Shown here piece by piece: positions 1-15,119 of a DNA stretch of 15,119 nt. Every line of letters starts with the position of its first letter. Position 1 is the stretch's first letter. Origin of the DNA: Candidatus Heimdallarchaeota archaeon B3_Heim (GTDB taxonomy: Archaea; Asgardarchaeota; Heimdallarchaeia; Hodarchaeales; Hodarchaeaceae); contig NJBF01000059.1 in assembly GCA_003144275.1 (NCBI GenBank), positions 1 to 15,119 on the forward strand. The letters are read 5' to 3'. Position numbers and translations under genes: made by a program. The notes beneath the pieces are model-generated. The model was given only the letters and a program-made list of their open reading frames with translations. It ran no database searches and was not told the origin of the DNA.

Positions 1-427
1 TTGGCTGATCTACGAGTTTATCATTTAATACTGGTTGCTTCTGTAGTTCCTCAAATGGGTACAATCGGACTTTCCCCTCTATCTCAAGAACTAAAGTAAG
101 AGCTTTTACATCGTATAGATTGTAAGGAGCTTCATTAGGTTTAAAGGAAGTTCGAAACCAAATAGATGATCTCTCTCGATATCCTGGATAGGTATTCGAG
201 TTGTAAGTTTCATCTGCATATTTTCCTGAGGCTCTGTCTAAAATGACTGTGTCAGGATATAATGTCTTCCACGCTTGCCATGTAGTTTCTGTGATTGCCT
301 GGATTGGGAGTTGTTGACCAATTTTTTCTCCTTTCAGGCTAACACCTAACATCTGTCTCCACAAACTATCAGAAATTCGATCATAAAATACAAGGTTATT
401 TTCATAGAGTTTGCCTGATGTTCCAAG
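1..427 (-). pseudogene. DUF3179-family protein, C-terminal part (downstream of the insertion; continues off the left edge)
   Basis: My translation of 427->1 is open throughout: LGTSGKLYENNLVFYDRISDSLWRQMLG...TETTWQAWKTLYPDT... This resembles the GxSGxLYxxNLxxYDRxTxSLWxQ and TTWxxW motifs of DUF3179. Not in the ORF track because it has no start codon and runs off the window. Confidence 0.88.
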
Positions 428-450
428 GGGTCAATACTGTTGTCGGATAG

Positions 451-494
451 ATTGACAGATATGGACATTTATAGACAACTAGGACAAGATGACA
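451..494 (+). repeat. Five phased GACA-core direct repeats at the element left end (putative TnpA binding motifs)
   Basis: GACA at 454, 464, 474, 483 and 491 (spacing 10, 10, 9, 8): attgacagat/atggacattt/atagacaact/aggacaagat/gacatt. Inverted TGTC copies occur at 441-444 and 866-869. Confidence 0.7.
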
Positions 495-704
495 TTACGG
501 AATGAAGAGAAATAGAAGGCAGGATATCTTAGGAGAAGGGAGTCGAGATTAAAATACATGGTTAACAGCGTGTTCAACCGATCTCATGGGATTATACCTA
601 AAATGACGCGCTAAATAACTTCTTGATATTAGAATAACGGGAAACAAGCAAATTTGTTTTAGATTACAGGGTTAGTAGGTTTATTAGAAGAAAAGCTACT
701 AATC

Positions 705-893
705 AATCAGGAAAGTCATGTGTCTTTCCTGTCGCCGAGAGTTCTGCGGAGACCTTAAACGCCTGTGGAGAGGTGGTAAGACCGGCATTAATGCCGGCTC
801 GCGTCGTTGAATCAGGAAGAACAGCGCCAAATAGTTAAGAATAATTTGGAAAAATTATTCCTCGCTGTCCTATTTGGGTAAGTCTTTCAGAAC
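705..893 (+). ncRNA. TnpB omegaRNA (reRNA)-like scaffold; the guide would be the flanking host DNA from about 894-915
   Basis: Contains aacgcctgtggagag...gtaagacc-[hairpin]-tcgttgaatcaggaa, which resembles the ETLNACGE...SLxQE region overlapping TnpB 3' ends. Hairpins: 708-715/724-731, 782-797 (16-bp palindrome), and 839-847/852-860 (GGAA loop). It abuts the right end. The 5' boundary is uncertain. Confidence 0.68.
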
Positions 894-1295
894 GGTAGCA
901 CCTCCAATACTTGAGGTATCATAAAGAATATCTGTACCAGTTAAGGGACAGAAAGTAATACATACATGCTCATCATTGAATTCATCGTTTACAGTCTCAT
1001 GCCAATTAAGTATATCACGAGGATACGCTCTAGCTTCGCCATCAATGACGATTCCCAGAATATAAAGACTATCTAGATCACCTGTATATTCTGATTCAAA
1101 TTCTGTTATTTCTAAAAATGTTGGGTTGTCGATTGAAGGGATGCTATCTGGGGGAGGGCCACCACCTATGATGTCATCACAAGGAACAAAACAATCGTCT
1201 GCTTTTGCAATAGCTGTAAAAGTGACTGTTAAGAGTAGTAGAGAAGTTATGAGAAGAAATTCTCCATAAAAATTAGAATTTTTGCGATTTTTCAT
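894..1295 (-). pseudogene. DUF3179-family secreted protein, N-terminal part (interrupted; the tracked ORF 870..1295 ends inside the insertion)
   Basis: Signal-peptide-like N-terminus (MKNRK...LLITSLLLLTVTFTAIAKA), followed by GGPPPDSIPSIDNP, ARAYP, LNWHETVND and TFCPLTGT motifs. The last 7 residues (VLKDLPK) and the TAG at 870-872 come from the inserted element. Confidence 0.88.
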
Positions 1296-1518
1296 ATCTA
1301 TTACGTCTTTTCAGGGTTTACTCCAATACATCACTACCTACAAGAATTTATATTCCTCCCTGAAAGATTTTCGTAATTGATTGACTTTCTATGCCCATGT
1401 CACTAGTATGTATTCATTAATCGTAATTTCGAAAGCAGTAGAATCTCCGAAAAACGAAATTAATCTGAATAAAGAACTCGTGATACTATCTTACCAAATG
1501 AGTTTATGATGCTGATGG

Positions 1519-2883
1519 TTAATCAAATTGTGGTAGATACTTCTTATGCACTTCAATGTAATCATCGAGCATTTGCTCCGCAATCGATAAGTCTGGAAGC
1601 ATTAAAGCGAATGCTTGGAGAGCTGGTTCTCTATCTCCCTTGATAGATGCGATTGTGAGTAGCTTTGCAATTGAGATTTCTCTCTGACACAGAGCTGCAA
1701 TAGCTTCGGGCAACCTACCGACTTTCATCCCCGAGACTCCAAAAGAATTTACTAGAGCTGGAACTTCTACAATGGCATCATCAGGAAGATTCGTGATTGC
1801 ACCTTGATTCGGAATATTGACTGCTTGTTCATAAGCATTTGAATTTGTGAGTAATTCCCCAATAATTGCATCTGCTCTTTCAGAAGGATTGGGTTGAATA
1901 TCTAATTCTCTTTTACCTGAAACAATATCCTTTATTCGTACCCACATTTTCTCTCGTTGAATTTTCCCCCGATTGAAGTCATATAATTGAATGCGATATT
2001 TCTCCCAATTTTCCTTTGAAAATGTATAAGGAAGGTACTCTGCGAGATGACAGTCCCCAGGAACTGGCAGTAATCCATAGATATCGTACATGTGTTTTGT
2101 TAGGGGTTCAAAGTTAGGATGAACATATTCTGCCTCTTGTCGTATTAAGGGATACAAATCTTCCTTTGTATCCAATCTACGCACATCAAGCATCCATGTA
2201 AAGTGATTAAGTCCAGCTGCTTTTATGTCATACTCACCAGCTGCTTCGACTGCAAACTCAGACATTATTTCTTGACTTTTATCAGTCCATTTTACCTCAA
2301 AATCAAGATTTTCAGTGATACCTAGATCCTTTGCCAGATAACGTCCCAATATACCGTAACCATGCCAGATTTGATGACACAATCCAATCGACTTTACTCC
2401 TACGTGTTCTGCGGCATAACCGATTCTAGGTACTGGGTTAGTAAAGTTGATTAACCAGCTATTCGGGGCAAGATCATGAATATCATATAAGATAGGCATA
2501 ATGAATGCTAATCCTCTCGCAGTATGGCCGAATGAACCCATTAAGCCATTCTCGGCATAGTGGTAAATATCATATTTTCTTGCTATCTGAAAATCCTTCA
2601 GCCATGTTTCCTCTCGGTCAATAGCCACCGATAAAATAACATAATCAGCGTCAATCAACGCTTGTTTTCGATCAAGAAAGGATTCGATTGTTATGTTGGA
2701 GTTCCATTCTAGCTTCATGAGCTCCCCTAGCGTATTTATTGTCTTCAAATTCTGCTCATGAGTGTCTACTAGTTTTAATGTAGAATTTGTTAAATCCTCA
2801 TGAGCAATGATGCCACTTAAATTGTCTAAACCAAAGCTTGCACTACCTGCGCCAATTATTACAATGTTTGCAGCGGAATCCAA
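1519..2883 (-). CDS. Family 4 glycoside hydrolase (NAD+/Mn2+-dependent; alpha-galactosidase MelA-like)
   Basis: GAGSASFG NAD-binding loop, NFTNP, GLCH (metal Cys) and GLNH motifs; 454 aa. TTG start with GGAGG about 7 nt upstream. Confidence 0.88.
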   Translation of the reverse strand: MDSAANIVIIGAGSASFGLDNLSGIIAHEDLTNSTLKLVDTHEQNLKTINTLGELMKLEWNSNITIESFLDRKQALIDADYVILSVAIDREETWLKDFQIARKYDIYHYAENGLMGSFGHTARGLAFIMPILYDIHDLAPNSWLINFTNPVPRIGYAAEHVGVKSIGLCHQIWHGYGILGRYLAKDLGITENLDFEVKWTDKSQEIMSEFAVEAAGEYDIKAAGLNHFTWMLDVRRLDTKEDLYPLIRQEAEYVHPNFEPLTKHMYDIYGLLPVPGDCHLAEYLPYTFSKENWEKYRIQLYDFNRGKIQREKMWVRIKDIVSGKRELDIQPNPSERADAIIGELLTNSNAYEQAVNIPNQGAITNLPDDAIVEVPALVNSFGVSGMKVGRLPEAIAALCQREISIAKLLTIASIKGDREPALQAFALMLPDLSIAEQMLDDYIEVHKKYLPQFD

Positions 2884-3037
2884 TAGAGAACCTCCAGTTA
2901 AGAATACCTATAGTTAATGATTTTCGAAATAATTTCTTCCAGAGTTTAATCTTTCTTTAGCATAATATATTTTTCTAGATATACAAAGAGGCCGATACCA
3001 AGAATGAAAAAGCGAAGAGAAAAAACCCAGAATATTG

Positions 3038-4738
3038 CTACTTGTCTTTGAGAGCTCTTTTAAGGACTTTTCCAACAGTTGTAAGGGGTAATTCTTCTCT
3101 AAATTCATAAACACGGGGTTTTTCATACTTGGAGAGATTTTCTGCAGCAAATTGTTGAATACTTTCTTTTACTGTTTCCGTGGCTTCAACATCTTTCTTC
3201 AATTTAATGTAGGCTTGCACGATTTCGCTTCCAGGACGATCTGGATCATCCATGCCTATTATGGCCACCATTTCAATATCTGGATGCTTTGTCAGCACAT
3301 CTTCTACGTGTACGGAGTAGACTTTATAGCCAGAAACAATCAACATATCTTTTACTCTATCAACAATTTGTATATAACCTTCCTCATCCATCACACCCAC
3401 ATCCCCTGTATGAAGCCATCCATCAGGTTCAATAGTTTCGGCAGTCGCTTCTGGTTTGTTGTAGTATCCTCTAGTTACGATAGGACCGCGAACTAAAATT
3501 TCACCAGGCTCTCCTGTTTCAACTGCTTCCCCTGTTTCGATATTGATAAGTTTCAATTCAGTATCGGGTAAAGGTAATCCCACCTTACCTACTTTCTTTT
3601 TGCCAAGTATTGGATTTGATACACAGACAGGAGAAGTTTCAGTCATACCATAAAGTTCCATTACTTTATTGGTTGCTTTCATTTTTGTTTCGAATTCTCG
3701 AATCATTTCAGCTGGGAAAGGAGCAGCACCAGATATGTATAGTCTGATATTATCTAAAACTTCGTTAGGTATTTCCTTTGCTTTTGGATGATTCATAATC
3801 ATCCCATAAAGTGTAGGTACATTTGCTACAATCGTTGGTTTATGGTCAATCATCTCCTGAATGACTTGACCTATGTCTCGCGGATTAGCAATTAATACTT
3901 GAGATCCTGCTACCCAGATTGACTCTGACATGACTGTGAGTCCAGCTGCATGAAACATCGGGAAAGCGGACAAAGTTAACGTTGTTCCTGGTTCCAAATT
4001 CATCCAATTAGCAAATATTGTATAATCAGCAATTAAATTTGTATGGGTAAGTTCAGTTCCCTTTGGAAAGCCAGTCGTACCTCCTGTATACTGAAGACAG
4101 GCTAAATCCTGATCTACATCTATCGTTACGGGTTTTACATTCGGATTTACTGACACCACATTTGAAAATTTGATTACTTTTTTCCCCGGCCAATCAAAAA
4201 TTTTCCCGTTTGGGATTTTACCTAGTTTTTTCCCCAGAAAGACCTTGATTTTACTCAGTCCCATATATTCAGAAATATTAGTAGCAATTACTATTTCTAG
4301 GGCAGGAATCTCATCTAGCTTTTTTGATAATACTTTTTCGTAAACAGCATCCAATGTCACTACAACTTTTGCCTTACTGTCATTTAGCTGATACGCGATT
4401 TCTTTGGCACTTAATAGTGGATTGAGACCTGAAGCTACACATCCAGCAAGTAGAGTTCCGACATGAGCAATTATATACTGTGGACAATTGGCTAAACTAA
4501 TAGCTACTACATCCCCTTTTTCTACAGCGTTTTCTTGTAAAAATGTGGCAAATCGTTTCACGTTTTCTAATAATTCTCCATACGTGATTTCCCTTTCCAT
4601 CATCCAACAGGCAATATTCTGTGGAAATTTTGCCATTTCACGCGTAAAAAGTACACCAAGGCTTTCTTTCGGATAACTTTCAGTTTTTACGTGACTATCC
4701 CACGATTTCATCCATAATTCAGGGGTAATTTTTGTCAT
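3038..4738 (-). CDS. Long-chain fatty-acid--CoA ligase (FadD-like, ANL superfamily)
   Basis: YTGGTTGFPKG, YGMTE, LHTGD, IVDRVKD and terminal GKVLKR motifs. ATG at 4738 preferred over the track's TTG at 4747 because of GAGGA spacing. Confidence 0.9.
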   Translation of the reverse strand: MTKITPELWMKSWDSHVKTESYPKESLGVLFTREMAKFPQNIACWMMEREITYGELLENVKRFATFLQENAVEKGDVVAISLANCPQYIIAHVGTLLAGCVASGLNPLLSAKEIAYQLNDSKAKVVVTLDAVYEKVLSKKLDEIPALEIVIATNISEYMGLSKIKVFLGKKLGKIPNGKIFDWPGKKVIKFSNVVSVNPNVKPVTIDVDQDLACLQYTGGTTGFPKGTELTHTNLIADYTIFANWMNLEPGTTLTLSAFPMFHAAGLTVMSESIWVAGSQVLIANPRDIGQVIQEMIDHKPTIVANVPTLYGMIMNHPKAKEIPNEVLDNIRLYISGAAPFPAEMIREFETKMKATNKVMELYGMTETSPVCVSNPILGKKKVGKVGLPLPDTELKLINIETGEAVETGEPGEILVRGPIVTRGYYNKPEATAETIEPDGWLHTGDVGVMDEEGYIQIVDRVKDMLIVSGYKVYSVHVEDVLTKHPDIEMVAIIGMDDPDRPGSEIVQAYIKLKKDVEATETVKESIQQFAAENLSKYEKPRVYEFREELPLTTVGKVLKRALKDK

Positions 4739-4759
4739 ATTCAGCAATCCTCTTATTAT

Positions 4760-4816
4760 TTGTAGAGCTACAAGGATCCAAGTATAATGTAATTAGATTA
4801 TAAGAATTTGCTACAA
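4760..4816 (-). promoter_or_regulatory. Putative promoter of the acyl-CoA ligase with a palindromic operator
   Basis: TATA-like CTTATAAT on minus (4797-4804). TTGTAG-N2-CTACAA palindrome at 4760-4773 and a further half-site at 4811-4816. Confidence 0.45.
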
Positions 4817-4846
4817 TAACAGTTGATGGAATATCGGGATTTTTTC

Positions 4847-5542
4847 CTACCAAGCAAGCTCATTACCTTGCCAGTCATAGAATCTTCCAGTTTCTTCTAA
4901 CGTTAATGAGTCGATAATTTGAATCATCCCTGAAATCGAATCTTTTTGTTCAATAGGAGCACTCTGTGTTCCCATCCTCGTCTTAACCCAACCAGGATGT
5001 ATAGGTATTACAATAATTCCTTTGTCACGAAGGGAATTCGATAGTAATTTCGTAAACATATTCAAAGCTGCTTTACTTGCACAATAACTGAAGTTTGTGG
5101 TGTTCTCTCGCGCTGAAATGCTACCCATCCAGCTTGAAATATTGATAATCTTACTATTCTCTTTGAATAGCTGGGAAAATTGTTCTGCAACCAAAACCGC
5201 TGAGATAGCGTTCACATTGAAAACTTCAAGCATATGATCAGCATGTAGATCACCAAATTTCAGTTCTCGTTTTCCAGTCATTCCTGCATTATTGATGAGT
5301 ATATCCAATCCTGAAATCTTCGATTTTACCTCGGTAAACGCTTTGGTTCTCGAATCACTTGATGTTATGTTCATTGGAACTAGAGTAAGAAAATCTGGAT
5401 ATTTTCTCTGCAGTTCTTCTAAGTCTGATATGTCATTATTTTCTCTAAAAGTAGCAACAACCTTTTCTCCCCTATCCAAATATTGTCTGACAAATTCCAA
5501 TCCTAGCCCGCGATTAGCTCCTGTTATTAAGATTTGTACCAT
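4847..5542 (-). CDS. Short-chain dehydrogenase/reductase, CsgA/C-factor-like
   Basis: TGANRGLG, INNAG, YCASK (YxxxK) and HPGWVKTRMG motifs; 231 aa. Confidence 0.9.
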   Translation of the reverse strand: MVQILITGANRGLGLEFVRQYLDRGEKVVATFRENNDISDLEELQRKYPDFLTLVPMNITSSDSRTKAFTEVKSKISGLDILINNAGMTGKRELKFGDLHADHMLEVFNVNAISAVLVAEQFSQLFKENSKIINISSWMGSISARENTTNFSYCASKAALNMFTKLLSNSLRDKGIIVIPIHPGWVKTRMGTQSAPIEQKDSISGMIQIIDSLTLEETGRFYDWQGNELAW

Positions 5543-5664
5543 TTTATTTCATTTCCGAGAATTCTATTTAGGTATTTTTAAGAATCTTATTTTAATTTAT
5601 CAACCTCAGTTTCGTAAATAATTTCATACACTCTAATTATTTTCTTCAAAGGAATTTGAGTTCG

Positions 5665-7932
5665 ATGTCTTTAACTGATAATTTGAAAATTCTTTTAGAA
5701 CGGAAGGATATTCCGAAAGATGTGAAAGAATTAATCAGAAATGGTTTCATCGTACATCAAGAGTCCCTTGCAAAGCTGGAGAAATCGGAAAAGCTTTATC
5801 GTAGTTTAGTTGAAAACTCTCGTGATATCATCTTTACAGCCGATATGGAGGGAATTATTACTTCCATCAATCCTGCAGCAGAAAAATTAACGGGTTGGTC
5901 AGCCGATGAATGGATAGGTAAACCTTTTCGTCCTAAGATACACCCAGAAGATTTAGATGCGGTATTAAGGGGATTTAGTACAATTACAGAGGGAGAAACC
6001 TTTCCCACTCCAGAAATACGCGTTTTAACTAAGTCAGGCATCTATAAACCATTTGAGATCAAAGGATCACCCAAGATGAAGAATGGGCGCATTGTAGGAT
6101 TGTTAGGATTTGCCCATAGTAAGCATGAATTGCGAGTTAGCGAGAATAGATATCAAACTCTAATCGAAACCGCTTTAGAAGGCGTTTGGATCACAGATTT
6201 GGATGACAAAACACTTTATGTGAATCCGGCGTTAGAAAAAATGTTAGGATGGTCGCTCAATGAAATGCTTGGAAGAGGTGTTGAGGAATTCCTCTCAATT
6301 GACTCTTTGCGGACATTTGAAGAAAAAGTAAAAGAAAGATTTGTTTCCAAGGTCCCCTCTTCTGTGTATGAACTCTCCTTGATTCGAAGAGATGGATCCT
6401 TCATCAAGGTAAGAGTCGCAGGAACAGTTTTACTTGACGATGAGGAAGAATTGGTTGGTTCTTTCGGGTTATTTACCGATATTACAACTGAAAAAGAAGC
6501 TCAAGATAGATATCGAAATTTAATAGAATTTAATCCTGATGCTATAATATTAACAGATCTAGATTTCAATATTATTACGGTTAATCAACAAGCTCTCAAC
6601 CTTTACGGAGTAGCTGGTCTTGAAGAATTAATTGAGAAGAATGCTCTCGAATTGGTAGTTCCTGAAGACCGCCAATATGCCATAGCAATTGTTGAGAAAA
6701 CTCTGGCTGAAGGAAAGATCTTTCGTTTTGAGTACACACTGCTTCGATTGGATGGGAGCACATTTCCTGCAGAGTTGATTGTCACTGCCATTGAAGATTT
6801 AAAAGGAGACCCGACCTCTTTTATAGCAATCACACGCGATATTACAGATAGAAAACAGTCCGAAGCTCGTTTAATAGAAAGTGAAGAGAAATATCGAACT
6901 CTTGTAGAAAATATTAACACAGGGATTTTTCGAGTAAGTCGGCAAGGACGTCTTTTACAGGCAAATTTCGCTTTTATTTCGATGTTTGGGTACACTTCTT
7001 TTGAAGAACTTGCCTCAACTGCTCTATCTGGTCTATATGTCGATTCAGAAGATCGAAAAACGTTTGTAGAAGAATTGTACTGTGAAGGACAATTAAATAT
7101 CAAAGATGTTTTGATGAAGAACAGGGATGGTATTCAATTTTGGGCTTCTATCTCTGCCCGAGTCTCACCAAATGGTCAATACCATGATGGTATAATAGAA
7201 GATATTTCCGAGAGAAAAGACGCGGAAGAGACAATTAAGCAAATTAAACTCGAGGAAGAACGATACCATGCGATGATGAGCCATTTTTTACGAAATGATT
7301 TGCAGAAAATTGTCAGCCAAATAGAGCTCTTATCGTATGAAAATGGAATAGAGAAAATTCTGGAAAAGGAAGAAGTTAAAGAAATTGTTAATATTGCTAA
7401 TCGTTCATCCAAGACAATTGATCTAGTTACCATGATTTTCGAAGTGCTTCAAAGGTCTCCCTTCTCTTCTGAATCCACATTTGCAGAAGAATATGCAATT
7501 AAGAATTTAGTAGAAACATTACCAATTAATCTGAAGAATACTAACAGATCTATTGATTTACAATTTCCTGAGCTAAGAATCGCTCATAGTGGATACCTAC
7601 CTCATGCTATCAACGAATTGGTATTGTTTTTAATCCATTCAACTGAAAAGGCAGCTCCTACTTCACCAATAATAATAGATGGTCATTCTTATGACCAGCA
7701 TTTCTGTTTAACGATAAGAGATTATATCTCTACTTCTATTCCCAAAGAAATTTGTGACCGTTTGACATCTAAGATAACAGATGACTGGGAATCCCACGGA
7801 TTCTATATTGGTATTACTCTAGCGTCTGTTGTCATGCAATACCTCAATGGGCAGTTAAAAATTGTACCCTACTTCCCCTATGGTAATGAATTTCAGATGT
7901 GGATTCCTAATACAATGATTAACAGAGAATGA
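5665..7932 (+). CDS. Cytoplasmic sensor with four PAS domains and a degenerate HisKA/HATPase-like C-terminus
   Basis: Four Y-R/Q-x-L-V/I-E...N...G units, three ending in D-I-T/S-x-x-K. H-box-like SHFLRN. No transmembrane segment seen. The track's TTG start at 5656 is an alternative. Confidence 0.85.
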   Translation: MSLTDNLKILLERKDIPKDVKELIRNGFIVHQESLAKLEKSEKLYRSLVENSRDIIFTADMEGIITSINPAAEKLTGWSADEWIGKPFRPKIHPEDLDAVLRGFSTITEGETFPTPEIRVLTKSGIYKPFEIKGSPKMKNGRIVGLLGFAHSKHELRVSENRYQTLIETALEGVWITDLDDKTLYVNPALEKMLGWSLNEMLGRGVEEFLSIDSLRTFEEKVKERFVSKVPSSVYELSLIRRDGSFIKVRVAGTVLLDDEEELVGSFGLFTDITTEKEAQDRYRNLIEFNPDAIILTDLDFNIITVNQQALNLYGVAGLEELIEKNALELVVPEDRQYAIAIVEKTLAEGKIFRFEYTLLRLDGSTFPAELIVTAIEDLKGDPTSFIAITRDITDRKQSEARLIESEEKYRTLVENINTGIFRVSRQGRLLQANFAFISMFGYTSFEELASTALSGLYVDSEDRKTFVEELYCEGQLNIKDVLMKNRDGIQFWASISARVSPNGQYHDGIIEDISERKDAEETIKQIKLEEERYHAMMSHFLRNDLQKIVSQIELLSYENGIEKILEKEEVKEIVNIANRSSKTIDLVTMIFEVLQRSPFSSESTFAEEYAIKNLVETLPINLKNTNRSIDLQFPELRIAHSGYLPHAINELVLFLIHSTEKAAPTSPIIIDGHSYDQHFCLTIRDYISTSIPKEICDRLTSKITDDWESHGFYIGITLASVVMQYLNGQLKIVPYFPYGNEFQMWIPNTMINRE

Positions 7933-8076
7933 TTATGGTGCCCTCTCACATTTTCCGTGAAGAATGACCCACCATAATTTTACTTTTGGCAAAAAGAGAT
8001 AAAGAGAGAAGTAAATACATTTCTGTCTTTTTACAAGTGGTTCATTGGGGTAATTTTTTTGAATAAGGAAAAGGAA

Positions 8077-8667
8077 ATGACCTATACTGCTCCTAGCTGG
8101 AATCATATACAAAATTTAAGCTTCGAGCTATATATGATGATCAAAAAGAGTAGCTTCAAGCCAGATATAATGGCTGGAGTGTCACGAGGAGGATTAGTAC
8201 CTGCTAGAATTCTCTCAGATTTATATCTGTCAGATGAAAAGAAAGTAACGCTAGCAATAATGCAAATAGGATTTTATTCGGGAATTGATAAAACAAAAAA
8301 AGAACCTATAATTTATCAGGATCTTCCCGGGCATATCTATGGGAAACGGATCCTTTTAATTGATGATGTAGCAGATAGTGGCGTATCATTACAATTTGCA
8401 CTTCAATATTTACAAATGAAGAAACCATTAGAGATTGTTGTTGGAACTCTTTACCATAAGCCATGGAGCCTTCTTAAACCTCAGTTTTATGTTGAGGAAA
8501 CGTCGGCATGGATAGTTTTTCCTCATGAACGTTTTGAATTCATGAATGATGTACTCAAAGATCAGAATATGAATGCTCATGCGTGTAAGGAGTTTTTTGT
8601 CAATAAAGTTGGTATAAATGAACAGGCTGTTAGGAATTTCTTAAAACTTAAGGAGATTAAAGAATGA
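8077..8667 (+). CDS. Type I phosphoribosyltransferase (hypoxanthine/guanine/xanthine PRT-like)
   Basis: SRGGLVPARILSD and PRPP loop LLIDDVADSG; its stop overlaps the purA start (ATGA, 8664-8667). ATG at 8077 preferred over TTG at 8059. Confidence 0.85.
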   Translation: MTYTAPSWNHIQNLSFELYMMIKKSSFKPDIMAGVSRGGLVPARILSDLYLSDEKKVTLAIMQIGFYSGIDKTKKEPIIYQDLPGHIYGKRILLIDDVADSGVSLQFALQYLQMKKPLEIVVGTLYHKPWSLLKPQFYVEETSAWIVFPHERFEFMNDVLKDQNMNAHACKEFFVNKVGINEQAVRNFLKLKEIKE

Positions 8668-9671
8668 GTGTTGATGTGGTTGTAGGTGGCTTCTGGGGAG
8701 ATGAAGGAAAAGGAAAAATTATCAGTCACCTCGTGAACAAGCGAAAAGCAACTATTGTGGCTAGAGGGGGAGTAGGCCCCAATGCAGGTCACACAATTGT
8801 TGTTGATGGAGTTGAATACAAATTACGAATGATTCCATCAGGAATCGGGGGAAAATTCGTGAGGAAATTATTAATCGGGCCAGGTGTACTGGTTAACCCA
8901 GAGGTATTTCTTGAAGAAATTGAGAAAACAAATATGCGTGGGAAAGCCTTTCTTGATCATCAGTGTGGAGTTATTAATGCCTCTCACAGAGAAATTGACA
9001 GATGTGATCCCCATCTCTCAAAGAAGGTTGGAACCACAGGTTCTGGATCTGGACCTGCAAATGAAGAAAGAGTTCGAAGAAAATTAAAATTAGCCAAGGA
9101 AATCGCGGAGCTCAAACCATTTTTAACTGATGTGCCTGGAGAAATACACGGAGGAATAGCTAATGGAGAACCTATTCTACTGGAAGGCACACAGGCTACC
9201 TACTTATCGCTATTTCATGGAACTTATCCATATGTCACTACAAAGGATGTAACCGCTTCATCCATCTGTGCAGATGTTGGTATAGGTCCAACTGTGGTAA
9301 CAGATGTAACGCTTGTATTCAAAGCGTACGTTACAAGGGTTGGTGAAGGTTTTTTACCAGAAGAGCTCACTGAAGAAGAAACTATAAAACGAGGATGGAC
9401 TGAGTATGGTACTGTGACCAAACGTCTTCGTAGAGCTGCTCCTTTCAATGTGGAGCTAGCAAAAAGAAGTATTCAGTTGAATTCCGCAACAAAAATAGCC
9501 TTAACAAAAATAGATATTTTATTTCCAGCGGATCAAGGTAACACTGAATTTGATAAACTATCTGAAGGTGCAAAAGAATGGCTGACTAGTAAAGAAAAGG
9601 AAATAGGAATGCCCTTTACCTTTATTGGCACAGGCCCCGCAGATGTAGAAATTATTGATAGAGAGGGATAA
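8664..9671 (+). CDS. purA: Adenylosuccinate synthetase, short archaeal type
   Basis: GGFWGDEGKGK, GPNAGHT, GTTGSG, EGTQ, TYPYVT and EYGTVT..RR motifs; 335 aa. Confidence 0.96.
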   Translation: MSVDVVVGGFWGDEGKGKIISHLVNKRKATIVARGGVGPNAGHTIVVDGVEYKLRMIPSGIGGKFVRKLLIGPGVLVNPEVFLEEIEKTNMRGKAFLDHQCGVINASHREIDRCDPHLSKKVGTTGSGSGPANEERVRRKLKLAKEIAELKPFLTDVPGEIHGGIANGEPILLEGTQATYLSLFHGTYPYVTTKDVTASSICADVGIGPTVVTDVTLVFKAYVTRVGEGFLPEELTEEETIKRGWTEYGTVTKRLRRAAPFNVELAKRSIQLNSATKIALTKIDILFPADQGNTEFDKLSEGAKEWLTSKEKEIGMPFTFIGTGPADVEIIDREG

Positions 9672-9672
9672 G

Positions 9673-10905
9673 ATGATACATCCTCTTGAAAATCGTTATA
9701 GAACGGAAATTGCTGATATATTTGAAGAATCATCTAGAATTAATAGAATGCTACAAGTAGAACTTGCCTTAGCACAGGCCCATGTAGAACAAGGTACGTT
9801 GACGAAAAATGAATATGATCTTTTATTTAAATCCAAGAGTAAGGTTACAGTTGAGCTCGTAAAGGAAATCGAAAAAGAAACACATCATGATACTATGGCT
9901 CTAGTAGAAGCATTTACACGGGTTTCAGGTTGTGATAAAGTACATCTTGGAGCTACAAGCTCAGATATCGTTGATTCCGCATTGGCATTACAGCTAAGGG
10001 AAGCTAATCAAGTGGTTCTTGCTGACCTGTTGATTTTAAAGAATTTATTATTGAGTAAAGCAGAGGAAACGAAAAATCTTGTGTGTATCGGAAGAACCCA
10101 TGGTCAGCATGCCATCCCCATGACTTATGGAATGAAGTTCGCATTATGGGCTTATGAAATTACAGATTGCTTGGAAGAACTAAGAAGAGCGAAATTTTAT
10201 GGAAAAATGAGTGGAGCAGTGGGCACTTTTGCAAGTTTCGGAGAAAAAGGTGTCCAAATTCAGACCAAAGTTTTACATGATTTAGGCCTATCGGTCCCTC
10301 TAATTACCAATCAAGTGGTTAGTCGAGTTTTTGTTGCTAAGTACATTTTCAACCTAATAACAATCGTATCGATAATCGAGAAGATGGCAAAAGAAATCAG
10401 AAATTTACAGAGGTCTGAAATCCAAGAACTGGCGGAACCCTTCGCTGAAAAACAAACAGGTTCCTCCACAATGCCTCACAAAAGAAATCCTATTTTGAGT
10501 GAAAATTTATGTTCATTGGCCAAACGGGTGCGTACAAACATCCTCCCTGCTTTAGAAAATATTTCTTTAGAACACGAGCGAGACCTCACAAATAGTGCTA
10601 ACGAGCGAATAATAATTCCTGAAACAGTGATACTGACCCATTTTATGATAAAAAGAATAACCAGAATAATTGTAGGATTAGATCTTTTTCCTGAAAATAT
10701 CAGAAAAAATGTTCATATCGACCCTGCCATATTTATGGAAAAGAAAATGGTCGAGCTCGTTACTGAGCAGGGATTAGGACGTCAGGAAGCTTATTCACGG
10801 GCAAAAAATTTCATATCAAAAGAAAAAATCGATCCAGAGATGTATCTCGGATTGTCTGAGCAAATAGTTCTCAAAACGATTGAACTCCTTCGTTCATCAG
10901 AGTGA
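9673..10905 (+). CDS. purB: Adenylosuccinate lyase
   Basis: THHD, HLGATSSD, GRTHGQHA and SSTMPHKRNP (fumarate-lyase signature) motifs. ATG at 9673 lies 1 nt after the purA stop; the track uses TTG at 9655. Confidence 0.95.
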   Translation: MIHPLENRYRTEIADIFEESSRINRMLQVELALAQAHVEQGTLTKNEYDLLFKSKSKVTVELVKEIEKETHHDTMALVEAFTRVSGCDKVHLGATSSDIVDSALALQLREANQVVLADLLILKNLLLSKAEETKNLVCIGRTHGQHAIPMTYGMKFALWAYEITDCLEELRRAKFYGKMSGAVGTFASFGEKGVQIQTKVLHDLGLSVPLITNQVVSRVFVAKYIFNLITIVSIIEKMAKEIRNLQRSEIQELAEPFAEKQTGSSTMPHKRNPILSENLCSLAKRVRTNILPALENISLEHERDLTNSANERIIIPETVILTHFMIKRITRIIVGLDLFPENIRKNVHIDPAIFMEKKMVELVTEQGLGRQEAYSRAKNFISKEKIDPEMYLGLSEQIVLKTIELLRSSE

Positions 10906-10907
10906 AA

Positions 10908-11651
10908 TTACAATAATCGCTTTATGGCTTCTATCGTTACATCAATTGCTTCTTTTTGTCCTTTCATGTGGTCTATGATTAATTCCCCAGATTCAGTATC
11001 ACCAATAGCGGCCATAATACCTCCAGCACGCCAACCCCGGATATAACTAATCACGAAAAGAGTTGAACATTCCATTTCCGTGATCAGTGTTCGTGCATTG
11101 ATCCAGACTTTCCATTTATTTTTTGCCCTCACGGCATCAGGTATTAATTCGGGTGTTTCAGAATAAAAGGCATCCTTGGAGTGGACAATTCCCTCATGAA
11201 ATCGATCTTGCAAATTCAAATGAGTTACTGCTTCCCGAAGAGCAAATATCACATCGGGATGGGCGACAGCGGGGAATGCAGGTAAGATGTATTCATGGGT
11301 TGTCCCTTCATCGCGTATAGCTCCCGTTGCTGAAACAAGATCTCCTAACTTGACATCTCTAGATAGTATTCCGGAAGTGCCAACGCGAATAATTGTATTA
11401 ACGCCCAGTTTTCCAAACTCTTCTATTCCAATTGCAGTAGAAGGTGCTCCTATTCCACATGATGATACCAGAATTGGAGTATCATTTAAATATCCTAAAT
11501 GCACACGGTACTCACGATTAAAAGATATCTCGTGTGGATCTTTGAGTTGTGCACTAATTCGTGGAACTCTTCCTGGATCGCCACAAATGATAAGATATCG
11601 ACTATTCTCTATTTCTTTGGCTGAGACATTAATATGATACTGTTTGTCCAT
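10908..11651 (-). CDS. Nucleoside phosphorylase, hexameric PNP/UDP family (uridine-phosphorylase-like; specificity uncertain)
   Basis: N-terminal YH, GDPGR, REY, GIGAPS, RVGTSG and EME motifs. ATG at 11651 has GGTGA 8 nt upstream; the track uses GTG at 11663. Confidence 0.88.
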   Translation of the reverse strand: MDKQYHINVSAKEIENSRYLIICGDPGRVPRISAQLKDPHEISFNREYRVHLGYLNDTPILVSSCGIGAPSTAIGIEEFGKLGVNTIIRVGTSGILSRDVKLGDLVSATGAIRDEGTTHEYILPAFPAVAHPDVIFALREAVTHLNLQDRFHEGIVHSKDAFYSETPELIPDAVRAKNKWKVWINARTLITEMECSTLFVISYIRGWRAGGIMAAIGDTESGELIIDHMKGQKEAIDVTIEAIKRLL

Positions 11652-11703
11652 TTTGAAACTCACCTTCGAGGGAAAAACTAGTTGTATGGTGGCTTCATAA
11701 TTC

Positions 11704-12162
11704 TTATGACTGAAGAGATGATAAAATCTCGTAATAATGTTGGGCTGTTATTCGGAGTTGCTTGAGTTGTTCGTTAGAAAGTCGCTGCGTGGTCAGATGA
11801 GAGGATAAAATTCCCTCGAAAGTGTAAGCGATATTTTCTTCTTCTAAGAGTAAAAATTGTGTCAATACTTCTGCCCTCTGATGGTAAACAACGAGATAAG
11901 CGGTACCAATCCCTTGTATGAGAAAAAATTTGGTAAGAGCAAATATTTCCACTTCATGGTTTGTGTGTTGACTCTCCCAGATAAGAGGAAGAAAGTTCCA
12001 GCCTATATCCTCCAAATTGTTTTTCGCAGCAAGTATTTTTATCAAGAGATCCCATGAAGATATCTCTGTATGCCAGGTGGAACCGCTCCAAAGAACTTCT
12101 GGCCTTTTATTGTATTCTATAACAGCAAATGTTAATCCAAGGCCAATTGGAGGTTGATTCAT
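11704..12162 (-). CDS. Hypothetical protein, 152 aa (possible longin/uDENN-like fold)
   Basis: ATG-initiated ORF filling the gap between the phosphorylase and the divergent gene, with no competing long ORF. No motif recognised with certainty. Confidence 0.7.
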   Translation of the reverse strand: MNQPPIGLGLTFAVIEYNKRPEVLWSGSTWHTEISSWDLLIKILAAKNNLEDIGWNFLPLIWESQHTNHEVEIFALTKFFLIQGIGTAYLVVYHQRAEVLTQFLLLEEENIAYTFEGILSSHLTTQRLSNEQLKQLRITAQHYYEILSSLQS

Positions 12163-12319
12163 TAAAAGTAATTCCTACATCTAGTTTTAGGTTCCAAGAA
12201 GCTACTACAGCTGCGTACGGACTGTCACTGAGTAGATCATTCTTATTCAAAGGTCTATTGTTAAAAAACTCTTTTATATTAGAAAAAAGGTAAAATAATC
12301 ACAATTGGTGAAATAAGCA

Positions 12320-12943
12320 ATGAGTATATGGAATCGTAAAAAATTTGGAATTTCTCAACGACATAGACGACAATTATCCCTTCAAGAAGCCTATCATATT
12401 CGAGATCCAGACAGCAATCAAAATATGCTCTGGGTCAAAAGGAAAAGATTTGGTCGGAAGACAAACATTAGGTTATGGGAATCCGAGGACACAACAGAGG
12501 GTAAGGAAGCTCTAACAATACAAGATGATGCAATGTTTGATGCTTTTGGGAAGTTCTCAATTATTGATCCTAATTCTGGCGCTGTCTTAGCTGTCCTAAA
12601 ACGCCATTTCTTCCGCAGTCTTCTTAGAGAAAAGTGGACTATTCGTGATCCAAAAACTTCTGAGGAACTCGTTACCGTCCAAGCACGTTCACTACCAATT
12701 TCATTGGTAAGGAATCTTCGGTGGTTACCAATACTAAATGCCTTCGATTTTTTCATTCAATTTATTCGACTGCAATGGGATTTTCTTGATTGTCAAACAG
12801 GAAAGAAGATTGGATACTTTGATCGGAAATTTACTATCGGAGATAATTATATTCTCGATTTCCAAGCAGATACAGAGAATAAAATTGATTCTAGAGTAGC
12901 TGTAGGACTAGGTGTAGTACTAGATACTGCTGAAAGCCGCTAA
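12320..12943 (+). CDS. LURP-one-related / scramblase (Tubby C-terminal-like) family protein
   Basis: Repeated Y/F/W-x-I-x-D...G...L/I-x-x-(V/L/F)-x-R-K/H hairpin units and a terminal hydrophobic helix (DSRVAVGLGVVLD). GGTGA 8 nt upstream; TTTATA at 12273-12278. Confidence 0.72.
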   Translation: MSIWNRKKFGISQRHRRQLSLQEAYHIRDPDSNQNMLWVKRKRFGRKTNIRLWESEDTTEGKEALTIQDDAMFDAFGKFSIIDPNSGAVLAVLKRHFFRSLLREKWTIRDPKTSEELVTVQARSLPISLVRNLRWLPILNAFDFFIQFIRLQWDFLDCQTGKKIGYFDRKFTIGDNYILDFQADTENKIDSRVAVGLGVVLDTAESR

Positions 12944-13020
12944 AATTCTTCATATCTTTTTTCCTTTTTTTCTTTCTCCTCTAATCTTTTTCTCTCTTAC
13001 CCTCATTTTTCTCTTCTTAA
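12944..13020 (+). terminator. Long T/C-rich tract after the LURP-like gene (archaeal-type U-rich terminator candidate)
   Basis: About 75 nt that are almost all pyrimidine, with several T4-T7 runs directly after the TAA. Confidence 0.45.
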
Positions 13021-13132
13021 ATAGCTTGAACAGAGCTGAACGGGAGGTTCTCGTTTTTTCATCAAAAGTCTTATAATGGAATTTCAACTGGATGGACAAA
13101 CCCAATTATTACATCTCTAGAGGTTCAATGAA

Positions 13133-15119
13133 ATGGAAGCGCTCACTGATACTGAAAAAAGTCCTGTACTTAAACTTGGTTTATCGATTTTACCTGTTTT
13201 GCTAATTATAATCGTGTTTTCAACTCCATTGGGACTGATACCACCACTGGGAGGATTAATTAATCCGAATGGCGGAATATGGGACGTCTCCACCTACGCC
13301 GAACATGGAAGTAAGACGTTGACAATTCCGAATGTCGAAGAGGAAGTAGTTTGCTATTATGATGAGTGGGGAATCCCCCATATCTTTGCTGAGAAAGATT
13401 CTGATATGTTTTTTGCCATTGGTTATGTGCACGCACGGGATCGTCTGTTCCAACTTGAAATGATTCGACGTCTATATACTGGCCAATTATCGGAAATTCT
13501 AGGTGAATCAGCTTTGTCAGTTGATATACAAATGAGAAATTTGTGTTTGGATAGATCAGCTAATGCGACCTGGAACATCATGCTAGCGGAAGATCCGAAT
13601 AGTGAACTAGTTAATTCATTAAAGAAATATTCTGAGGGAATTAACTATTTCATTGATCACTTGTCTCCTCACAAAATTCCTCTTGAATTTCGATTACTCG
13701 ATATTAAACCAAGCCATTGGTTACCATATTATACGATTGGATACGGGAAGTACATGTCAATGGGCTTAGCTCATGATGGTTTTCAAGAGTTTACTGTGGC
13801 TCTCTTAGGTTCATATTTCTCTGAAGCAGATATGCTTGAACTATTCCCAATTAATAACACAGTAGGCATCATCCCAGTTTTACCGAATTATGGATCGTAT
13901 CCCTCCCCACCTAATCCGCCAGAAAATACCACTGGGCTATTAAAAACTGGAATCGTCGAAAATCAAAATCCTTTACCAGATAATGTGATTACTAGTATGC
14001 TTGAGATTCTGGTAAGAAGGGAAATTTCAGACCAAGTTGTTATCAACGATGGATATATCGTGAAAGATTACCTCAATGTATTTGACACGATAATCGGAAG
14101 TAATAATTGGGTCATAAATGGTAGTATTTCGTCTACTGGCTATCCGATCTTAGCAAATGATATGCATTTACAACTAGTTATGCCAGGCGTTTGGTACGAG
14201 CTCCAGCACGCTTCTAAGGAATCGGGAATCAATGTTTATGGGTTTTCGTTTGCTGGTATGCCAGGTGTAGTTGCGGGTCATAGTGAATATGCGAGTTGGG
14301 GATTTACAAATGTAGGAGCCGATGTTGTTGACTACTTTTATTATAATACCTCCGCAGATGGTAAAAAATATTTAAATGGGAGTACGTGGGATGATTTTGA
14401 GGTGGTCACTGAAACCATTCCAGTAAGAGGGACAACAAATTATGAATTGACAATTCGCTTTACTGGACATGGACCAGTTCTTTCTCCCGACATCGACTCT
14501 CATGTTGAGGCAGCAAACTTCGCTCCCATTGCAATGCGTTGGACAGGTCATGATGATTTAATGTTTGGAACACCTGATTATCTTGTGAAAGCTGTTTTTG
14601 GTTTATGGACTGCTCAAACACTAGCGGATTTTGCCGAGGTTCAAAAGGATTGGAGTATTCCAGGACAGAATTTTGTAGTTGCAACAACAGATAATCACAT
14701 TGCAATCCGGCCCGTAGCCAATTACCCAATTCGTCCTAAAGGAAATTGGGGCAGACAACCAGTAAATGGTTCAAACCCGGCTAATGATTGGCTAGGTTAT
14801 ATTCCTTATGATGAACTTGCAGTTGCTGAAGACCCTGCACAACAGTTTCTGACGTCAACCAATCAAAAAACCACAGGTCCAGATTATTCCTACTATATGG
14901 GAAGTTTTTTTGCCCCTGGGTATCGTAGTCGGAGAATTACAAACTTGATTCAGGAGAAAATTGATACAAATGAGAAAATCTCTGTTGAGGATATGCAAAG
15001 ATTTCAATCCGATATCGTAGATACAAGTGTGGAGGCATTTCAACCAGTTTGGAGTACGATAGACACACACGGGAATACAACCTTACAAGCAGCTTTGGAC
15101 TATATGCATAATTGGGGTG
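13133..15119 (+). CDS. Penicillin acylase family Ntn-hydrolase (peptidase S45), N-terminally membrane-anchored; partial, runs off the right edge
   Basis: My translation is open from ATG 13133 to the window end (662 codons). It shows a hydrophobic segment (LGLSILPVLLIIIVFS), DEWGIPHIFA, GYVHARDRLFQ, catalytic GSNNW (Ser codon 14099-14101), LANDMHL, PGQNFV and YRSRRI. GAGGT RBS and CTTATAAT at 13070-13077 lie upstream. Confidence 0.92.
   Translation, partial: MEALTDTEKSPVLKLGLSILPVLLIIIVFSTPLGLIPPLGGLINPNGGIWDVSTYAEHGSKTLTIPNVEEEVVCYYDEWGIPHIFAEKDSDMFFAIGYVHARDRLFQLEMIRRLYTGQLSEILGESALSVDIQMRNLCLDRSANATWNIMLAEDPNSELVNSLKKYSEGINYFIDHLSPHKIPLEFRLLDIKPSHWLPYYTIGYGKYMSMGLAHDGFQEFTVALLGSYFSEADMLELFPINNTVGIIPVLPNYGSYPSPPNPPENTTGLLKTGIVENQNPLPDNVITSMLEILVRREISDQVVINDGYIVKDYLNVFDTIIGSNNWVINGSISSTGYPILANDMHLQLVMPGVWYELQHASKESGINVYGFSFAGMPGVVAGHSEYASWGFTNVGADVVDYFYYNTSADGKKYLNGSTWDDFEVVTETIPVRGTTNYELTIRFTGHGPVLSPDIDSHVEAANFAPIAMRWTGHDDLMFGTPDYLVKAVFGLWTAQTLADFAEVQKDWSIPGQNFVVATTDNHIAIRPVANYPIRPKGNWGRQPVNGSNPANDWLGYIPYDELAVAEDPAQQFLTSTNQKTTGPDYSYYMGSFFAPGYRSRRITNLIQEKIDTNEKISVEDMQRFQSDIVDTSVEAFQPVWSTIDTHGNTTLQAALDYMHNWG

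Follow-up and report, generated by a model that had tools for sequence, protein, structure and literature searches.

A probable non-autonomous IS607-family derivative with an omegaRNA-like module interrupts a DUF3179 gene of a Heimdallarchaeota archaeon

The interrupted DUF3179 gene and its empty site

The DNA analysed here, called the window throughout, is a stretch of 15,119 nt from the metagenome-assembled genome (MAG) of Candidatus Heimdallarchaeota archaeon B3_Heim (assembly GCA_003144275.1, contig NJBF01000059.1, positions 1 to 15,119 of the forward strand). Its minus strand carries one DUF3179 gene in two pieces, the halves being separated by a 466 bp insert that is probably a non-autonomous transposon of the IS607 family. 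The C-terminal half (2-427, minus strand) starts with LGTSGKLYENNL and runs past the window start; it matches PF11376 positions 85-217 (E 2e-27) and is collinear with intact homologues. The N-terminal half (896-1295, minus strand), also aligned to homologues, matches PF11376 positions 2-80 (E 1e-24). The open reading frame (ORF) annotated at 870-1295 is slightly longer than this half: true DUF3179 coding stops at 896, where ...SSIGGAT is followed by eight foreign codons of the insert and a stop at 870.

Four intact DUF3179 homologues were found in the genus by tblastn (one each in G020 and G016, two in G001), and in all four the matches to the N- and C-terminal halves abut in one frame, with IGG[AS]T running without a gap into LGT[ST]GxLYENNL. 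The G020 homologue shares 73% identity over the N-terminal half and 79% over the C-terminal half, and the reconstructed empty-site DNA, which reads ...CCAAGGGTAGC... across the rejoined joint, aligns to this orthologue base for base and without gaps. The same orthologue (L110, G020:C100), the nearest of intact length, has an in-frame TAG where the others have Trp (the W within TETTWQAWK in the window), which could be a pseudogene mutation, a sequencing error or a recoded stop.

The empty site was also observed in nature. When Logan contigs of public sequencing runs were compared with window positions 1-1400, a 6557-nt contig from a 2016 marine-sediment metagenome (X1, record 1) was found to join position 427 to position 894, and the same joint is present in a 584-nt contig from a 2024 marine-sediment run of a separate study (X2, record 11). 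Both bridging contigs omit exactly 466 bp, with a 2-nt overlap that fits either side, and are about 95% identical to the window sequence (mismatches at about 5% of positions). Because they join 427 to 894, the empty allele is real in a close relative and the insertion was precise. The fusion in frame after removal of 428-893, proposed in the earlier note, is thereby confirmed: with these 466 bp taken out (the boundary being ambiguous by the 2 nt of a GG), the halves rejoin exactly as in the four intact homologues, and both metagenomic empty sites agree. The public runs that matched were otherwise uninformative on expression, or on habitat beyond the two bridging contigs, as the shares of sampled window words were all at or below 0.15 and none of the runs was RNA.

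An assembly chimera, in which a repeat was misplaced in the MAG contig, would suit a MAG in 103 contigs with many copies of the repeat at contig ends, and the bridging contigs do carry the empty and not the occupied allele. The insert is flanked, however, by adjacent codons of one gene, and both junctions have the exact anatomy of the repeat family described below (RGG/G...AACGG/, the slashes marking the element boundaries), so that a chance misjoin was rejected. Contigs of a further run (X4) break at 429 and 894, as expected at the repeat boundary of an occupied allele. A chimera is, on this evidence, barely credible.

A repeat family with a TnpB-only parent

The window's genome (3.95 Mb, 94% complete) contains 27 matches to the insert and about 20 right ends of the family. 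A second complete 466-bp copy lies on contig C54 (94-95% identical), and two partial copies stand at contig ends (C24, C62). In the sister species G013 there are 36 matches, including at least 15 mini copies with 88-93% identity to that of the window. The gene-less copies fall into four mini subfamilies, of 466, 431, 455 and 460 bp.

Other matches are paired: ~283 bp from the start of the insert and ~173 bp from its end recur about 1.2 kb apart on one strand, and between them sits an ORF of 426 aa with the Pfam domains HTH_OrfB_IS605, OrfB_IS605 and Cas12f1-like_TNB. Residues 1-406 of this TnpB align to the solved structure of ISDra2 TnpB (E 9e-47), and the RuvC acidic residues (D199, E283, D363/365) and both CxxC pairs are in place, as judged from an alignment to the top match, an AI-designed RNA-guided nuclease. 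Six full-length copies with intact tnpB were found (1630-1653 bp). Judging from these alignments, the parent is a 1.65-kb element encoding only TnpB, and the insert is an internal-deletion derivative of it. It consists of parent positions 1-284, a short junction and the last ~175 bp of the parent, which comprise the last ~38 tnpB codons and 57 bp beyond. In the window, the left-end segment (430-712, plus strand) shows 70-73% identity to the six full-length copies by blastn, and a relic of the last ~38 tnpB codons (FPVAESSAETLNACGEVV...TAPNS*; 725-838, plus strand) agrees with the C-terminal end of the 426-aa protein. Read in the sense of its TnpB and RNA, the element thus lies on the plus strand, antisense to DUF3179.

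The earlier note had found no internal ORF resembling a transposase and had suggested a search for an autonomous tnpA-tnpB element with the same ends. The insert turns out to hold transposon-gene content, namely the tnpB 3' relic (~725-838) and the omegaRNA-like module described below, and the immediate parent is the 1.65-kb TnpB-only element instead.

Several further observations concern the distribution of the family. Two full-length TnpB elements, one in each of the two sister genomes (G000:C82:50642-52295 and L101, G013:C139), have a common left flank, CCTGAAAATGGG, and may represent an orthologous insertion that predates the species split. At G000:C96:23420-23815, two family right ends (23420-23608 and 23643-23815) follow each other on one strand at a distance of 222 bp, and one of them belongs to a 455-bp-type mini element just past the right tip of a full-length copy. 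In a Promethearchaeota MAG (L119, JBHLMN010000005.1, 3656-4130) the tnpB match is about 320 nt longer than expected, and the first 53 nt of the omegaRNA module are present twice (3656-3708 and from 3974), which suggests a nested insertion or a duplication within the tnpB 3' end.

Termini and target motif

About 40 distinct right ends, from the window's own genome and from G013, are alike through ...GGGTAAGTCTTTCAGAACGG and divergent from the next base on. In the window this point is the GG core of the right junction (894-895), the element terminus being AACGG; the ~40 right ends stop matching exactly here. About 30 distinct left ends, from these two genomes as well, start with G-T-(T/C), and the flank preceding them ends in GG in each case; the base before this GG is a purine in all ~30 flanks, and the base before that is mostly A. 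At the left junction of the window the GG core occupies 428-429. Of the two GGs, one comes from the target, which leaves the boundary ambiguous by 2 nt, in keeping with the 427-to-894 joint of the metagenome contigs. Given the observed empty site and the comparison of ends, the arrangement flank-AR[GG]-G...AAC-[GG]-flank, with a target containing one GG, is the sole consistent reading. Copies with identical ends and GG cores, for which the earlier note had proposed a blastn search of the genome and its relatives, were indeed found.

A repeat scan of the element, together with an empty allele that is short by exactly 466 bp, revealed no terminal inverted repeat and no target duplication; in this respect, and in the GG at both ends (428-429 and 894-895), the earlier description was accurate. 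Near the left end, a motif scan showed four direct GACA-type motifs (TTGACA, TGGACA, TAGACA and AGGACA; 451-486, plus strand) spaced by 9-11 bp, which are candidate binding sites of a TnpA by analogy with known elements. ATAGACA/AGGACA motifs likewise adjoin tnpA in the IS607 elements of the congeners G012, G013 and G016. Near the right end there are inverted copies of the end motif (866-886, minus strand), AGGACA at 866-871 and AAGACT at 881-886, and one inverted repeat (I2) pairs 476-486 with 866-876; in the G012 IS607 element, TAGACA is found inverted 16-21 bp from the right tip. Hallmarks of the IS607 family are insertion at (G)GG, GG termini, the lack of inverted repeats and duplications, and short direct motifs bound by a serine transposase (PMC6188088).

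The term miniature inverted-repeat transposable element (MITE) was considered as a name. The insert is miniature, gene-less and multicopy, but since inverted repeats and target-site duplication are both absent, the strict name was rejected, and the accurate one is a non-autonomous IS607 derivative.

Assignment to the IS607 family

The NCBIfam model for IS607 TnpA (NF033518) gave matches above the cut-off in 5 of 21 congeners, and three complete tnpA-tnpB elements were recovered (G012:C120, G013:C56 and G016:C133). Their left ends read GGG/TTGTCAA...(ATATACCCAA)ATATAGACAGATAGGAC, followed by the tnpA ATG, and their right ends ...TGTCTATAATGAAAGGAACGG/, so that they have a tip type, a motif and a GAACGG terminus in common with the mini family. 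The tnpA of G013:C56 (L077/L079), from the sister species in which mini copies are most numerous, starts ATG AAA CTA TAG, with a stop at codon 4 where G012 has TCT, and this copy is probably inactive.

The relatives of the 426-aa TnpB were also examined, as the 80 nearest loci in one-genome-per-species collections. The nearest of these come from Heimdallarchaeota, Hodarchaeota and Promethearchaeota MAGs, and the Asgard loci (77-88% identity) are TnpB-only. A full IS607 TnpA is encoded directly upstream, ending where tnpB begins, at 21 of the 80 loci, and remnants occur at a further 11; the 21 tnpA-bearing loci are more distant (43-51%) and are mostly from Bacillota, Chlamydiales, Omnitrophota and Ktedonobacteria. 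The elements of the bacterial relatives end in ...GGAACGG/. Together, the tips, the motifs and the serine TnpA next to related TnpBs support an assignment to IS607 on sequence grounds. The proposal of a non-autonomous IS607-type derivative at a GG core, made in the earlier note, is thus upheld by the shared boundaries (~40 right and ~30 left ends), the subterminal motifs, the termini of congener tnpA-tnpB elements and a TnpB clade with IS607 TnpA.

The same loci bear on whether the insert could belong to IS200/IS605 (Y1/HUH) instead, as a palindrome-associated transposable element (PATE) that moves as single-stranded DNA and inserts 3' of a short motif ending in GG. The nearest solved structure to the TnpB, that of ISDra2, comes from an IS605-family element, IS605 elements, too, typically insert 3' of a short invariant motif without duplication, and the left tip of the 466-bp subfamily can be folded into a small hairpin (GTCAAT...ATTGAC). 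That hairpin is not conserved across the other subfamilies. No match to the Y1 TnpA family PF01797 was found in the window's genome, and a crude motif scan detected a Y1 motif at none of the 80 loci, as against IS607 tnpA or its remains at 32. The termini and motifs, moreover, fit the serine-TnpA elements of congeners and bacteria, and a PATE is very improbable.

The sole serine recombinase in the B3_Heim assembly is an ordinary invertase with a C-terminal helix-turn-helix (HTH), encoded beside a reverse-transcriptase gene and unrelated to the element. On this short contig (L028, G000:C2:5532-7731), a 416-aa reverse-transcriptase-like ORF adjoins the 183-aa invertase (resolvase N-terminal domain and C-terminal HTH), and the locus may be retron-like or a defence reverse-transcriptase locus.

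An omegaRNA-like module at the right end

The last 165 nt of the element (731-895, plus strand; GTCGCCGAGAG ... CTTTCAGAACGG, to the right end) are retained in all copies and all mini subfamilies, and correspond by homology to the 3' end of tnpB plus the right end in the six intact TnpB copies. This segment has 80-86% identity to the full-length copies, compared with 68-73% for the left-end interior. An earlier RNAalifold run with default settings gave a weak structure; with RIBOSUM scoring, 36 copies gave a consensus fold of 51 pairs in which 92% of cells are paired, against 33-44% when the partners are slid by 1-3 columns. Compensatory (two-sided) changes were seen in 11 pairs, against 3-9 in the slid controls, and the covariation score of 0.122 (controls at most 0.061) was reached by none of 500 shuffles. 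The single-sequence fold of the module gave a z of only -1.8.

In position (tnpB 3' end to right tip), size and pairing, the module matches known TnpB omegaRNAs, and by analogy it appears to be an omegaRNA-like scaffold. Neither strand of the window, searched over its full length at E up to 1, gave a match to Rfam (omegaRNA, RAGATH-18 and intron families). The insert has kept this scaffold and lacks an effector gene, and compatible TnpBs are encoded elsewhere in the genome, which is the configuration of a standalone omegaRNA locus. In the IS607 TnpB system studied previously, the scaffold ends in ...UCGG and the guide is drawn from the flank (10.1101/2023.11.20.567912). By analogy, the predicted guide segment here is the right flank (896-915, plus strand), which matches the empty-site target after AGGG.

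Two details of the module are recorded as side observations. The loop of its terminal hairpin (839-860) is TGGAAA, set between the two arms of a palindromic stem; all other copies of the subfamily have the same arms around the reverse-complementary TTTCCA or TTTCCC, as if the loop had been inverted in the window copy alone. Scaffold positions 770-778 (GAGGTGGTA) are complementary at 8 of 9 bases to the start of the predicted guide (896-904, TAGCACCTC), probably by chance.

The exact in-frame removal of the insert could also be expected of an intron (group I or II, or an IStron) or of an archaeal splicing substrate that keeps DUF3179 functional, and IStrons with a long non-coding left end are known in the IS607 family (10.1101/2023.11.20.567912), the left end of the present family being likewise long and non-coding (~330 nt). 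The intron families of Rfam were, however, covered by the search just described, the element is antisense to DUF3179, and the empty form exists as DNA. Eight of the ten complete 466-bp-subfamily copies lie outside long ORFs, and the two inside are too few for a test of orientation bias. We give an intron or splicing substrate almost no credence.

Mini subfamilies and the fusion of a promoter-like block to the scaffold

All full-length copies and all four mini subfamilies conserve a BRE/TATA-like block (BRE, transcription factor B recognition element; TAGTAGG-TTTATTAG...TAATCAATCAG at 672-710, plus strand), which across copies reads TAGTAGG-TTTATAAG-AAGAAAA...TAATCAATCAG. It lies about 45-75 nt upstream of the tnpB start and looks like the archaeal BRE/TATA promoter of tnpB or the omegaRNA. 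The four subfamilies all keep the left end through this block and resume within 0-20 nt of GTCGCCGAGAG; in the window copy, the scaffold is fused 20 nt downstream of the block. The junction sequences differ between the subfamilies and cannot be aligned with one another. That of the 466-bp subfamily (708-731, plus strand) forms a small hairpin (CAGGAAAGTCA / TGTCTTTCCTG). Its new bases resemble, in inverted orientation, those that directly precede GTCGCC, as would be left by a template-switch deletion.

As four subfamilies with different junctions all fuse the TATA-like block to the start of the omegaRNA, selection for promoter-guide cassettes is suggested. Either independent deletions were repeatedly selected for the fusion or one ancient deletion diverged at the junction; the first is favoured.

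The ~190 nt of left-end interior between the direct motifs and this block (490-670) are purine-rich. They are about 70% identical between mini and full-length copies, are kept in all subfamilies, and lie upstream of the TATA-like block, too far inward for known TnpA footprints.

Origin, age and proposed activity

Taken together, window positions 430-893 plus one GG are, in our judgement with good confidence, what an internal deletion has left of an IS607-family transposon in an Asgard (Heimdall/Hodarchaeota-like) archaeon: a non-autonomous derivative that descends from a TnpB-only parent and retains an omegaRNA module. Four parts have been kept: the left end with its GACA motifs, the purine-rich leader of ~190 nt, the TATA-like block and the omegaRNA scaffold of 165 nt. 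Several results weigh against this. No IS607 tnpA was detected by NF033518 in the 94%-complete assembly, although congeners have one and the proposed insertion requires a TnpA supplied in trans. The congener tnpA elements carry a different TnpB (~540 aa) and a different right-end interior, and an autonomous element with the very same ends was not found among the congener tnpA loci, as blastn of the full element against them gave just one match, of 59 nt, at the left tip in G012. The covariation score and the structure that it tests come from one alignment, two thirds of the module also encode protein in the parent, and the star-like likeness of the mini copies, at only 90.5-94.6%, points to a family that is possibly an old burst, now immobile.

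The last figure also concerns the age of the insertion. The complete 466-bp-subfamily copies are 90.5-94.6% identical to one another, the nearest copy to that of the window shares 94.6%, and the two copies of its own genome are no closer mutually than to those of G013. The earlier note had read the uninterrupted host halves as a sign of recent insertion, which is unsupported since the copies differ by 5-9%; that the two halves, 283 codons in all, are free of stops says little in either direction. Because the strain of ~5% divergence has an intact allele, the insertion is younger than the split from that strain, or was lost there by scarless excision.

For the host gene, the insertion truncates DUF3179 after residue 133, most likely inactivating it and leaving a null allele of an accessory gene. 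DUF3179 genes are present in only 4 of the 22 genus genomes searched, the window's own included. The neighbourhood is ordinary chromosome, with genes for a glycoside hydrolase of family GH4, an acyl-CoA synthetase, a short-chain dehydrogenase/reductase (SDR), a PAS sensor, purine genes and a penicillin amidase.

By analogy with studied elements, a serine TnpA supplied in trans would excise the element as a circle and insert it at GG. At this locus, the anatomy suggests that insertion took place by serine-recombinase exchange at the GG within AGGG, antisense to DUF3179 and without duplication. Transcription from the element's own promoter would then yield an omegaRNA with ...ACGG as the last scaffold bases and the right flank (TAGCACCTCC..., TAGCACCTCCAATACTTGAG) as guide. 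One of the at least six intact TnpBs encoded elsewhere in the genome, loaded with this omegaRNA, might cut empty sites consisting of ARGG and the flank (here AGGG), and repair from an occupied copy would restore the insert, so that its retention would be favoured. The occupied site would be spared through the contrast at -3 between RGG in the flank and CGG inside the element. A purine stands at -3 in every flank and C at -3 inside the element, which parallels the TGGG/TCGG discrimination measured for CboTnpB. That the element is transcribed into an omegaRNA, which TnpB uses against empty AGGG-plus-flank sites to favour retention, is by these analogies somewhat more probable than the opposite.

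An inert fossil would have the same identity, with the 3' module retained only because the recombinase needs it in the right end, or inherited from one ancient deletion, and with no working omegaRNA. The divergence of the copies (5-9%) and the failure to find tnpA in the genome are in line with this, and because the 5' breakpoints of all subfamilies fall within ~40 nt, one ancient deletion with later divergence could also account for them. The unalignable junctions of the four subfamilies speak against it, however, as do the base pairs of the module, kept through changes, and its higher identity to full-length copies (80-86%, compared with 68-73% for the left-end interior). Ends of 60 bp are enough for excision in the studied IS607 element (10.1101/2023.11.20.567912), so the ~165 nt kept here exceed the expected need of a recombinase substrate. 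We regard an inert fossil as rather unlikely, though it merits serious consideration.

A broader and more tentative proposal is possible, although we would not bet on it. The spreading unit in this Asgard lineage may be a cassette of promoter and guide RNA. Deletions that take out just the tnpB coding part and bring the element's own promoter up to the omegaRNA start would have arisen and amplified several times, giving guide-only transposons that parasitise TnpA (for movement) and TnpB (for homing) in trans, are more numerous than the protein-coding elements they came from and survive in the genome after its loss of tnpA.

Comparison with known systems and significance

With members of the IS607 family (IS607, IS1535, ISC1926; PMC6188088), the insert shares the GG tips and target, with (G)GG preferred, the lack of inverted repeats and duplication, the direct motifs in the ends, and the tnpB 3' end of its parent at the right tip. 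It differs in that the window copy has neither tnpA nor tnpB, and in a parent that is tnpB-only and has a non-coding left end of unusual length (~330 nt). The closest functional parallel is CboIStron of Clostridium botulinum, an IS607 element in which TnpA and TnpB both use TGGG, the scaffold ends in UCGG and the base at -3 discriminates self from non-self; a mini element consisting of its ends only was excised by TnpA in trans in the laboratory (10.1101/2023.11.20.567912). In both, the transposase target coincides with a nuclease motif ending in GG (TGGG there, ARGG here), scaffold and element end in CGG, and position -3 separates the occupied from the empty site, which for the present element is predicted from sequence. 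In contrast to CboIStron, no group I intron was detected here, a purine and not a fixed G is found at -3, A and not T at -4, and the host is an archaeon.

Standalone omegaRNAs are mobilised guide loci that lack effector and transposase and work with TnpB in trans (Altae-Tran et al. 2021, summarised in PMC10691335). The present family resembles them in having transposon ends and an omegaRNA, no protein gene, and compatible TnpB loci in the genome. It differs in being IS607-type, in its Asgard host and in the four subfamilies that fuse a promoter-like block to the omegaRNA start, and its function in trans is a prediction. The 1.65-kb parent copies encode TnpB alone, as do IS1341-type elements; that group is usually filed under IS200/IS605, whereas the ends and relatives found here point to IS607. 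ISC1733 is an IS607-type tnpA-tnpB element. Its transposase mobilises SMN1, a non-autonomous element of 320 bp in Sulfolobus islandicus (PMC3718332), which by description is likewise an archaeal, gene-less miniature element dependent on a transposase in trans, in another phylum.

The earlier note knew of no such miniature family in this kind of archaeon. This stands for the Asgard host; comparable elements (standalone omegaRNAs, and SMN1 in Sulfolobus) are known, and so the element kind itself is not new. New here are the Asgard host lineage, the natural pair of occupied and empty alleles, the contrast of ARGG with ACGG and the repeated fusion of promoter and scaffold.

For annotation, the DUF3179 entries of this MAG should be flagged as one interrupted gene, not two genes. 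The locus provides a clean natural example of an IS607-type insertion in an Asgard archaeon, with both alleles seen in nature, and its ARGG target, resembling a target-adjacent motif (TAM), faces an internal CGG, a contrast also seen in the only IS607 TnpB system that has been characterised in depth. In practical terms, an archaeal TnpB family gains a predicted TAM together with predicted scaffold boundaries and guides. The repeated fusion of promoter and omegaRNA in gene-less derivatives suggests that retention of the guide RNA has been selected, which bears on the persistence of TnpB and on the origin of guide-only loci.

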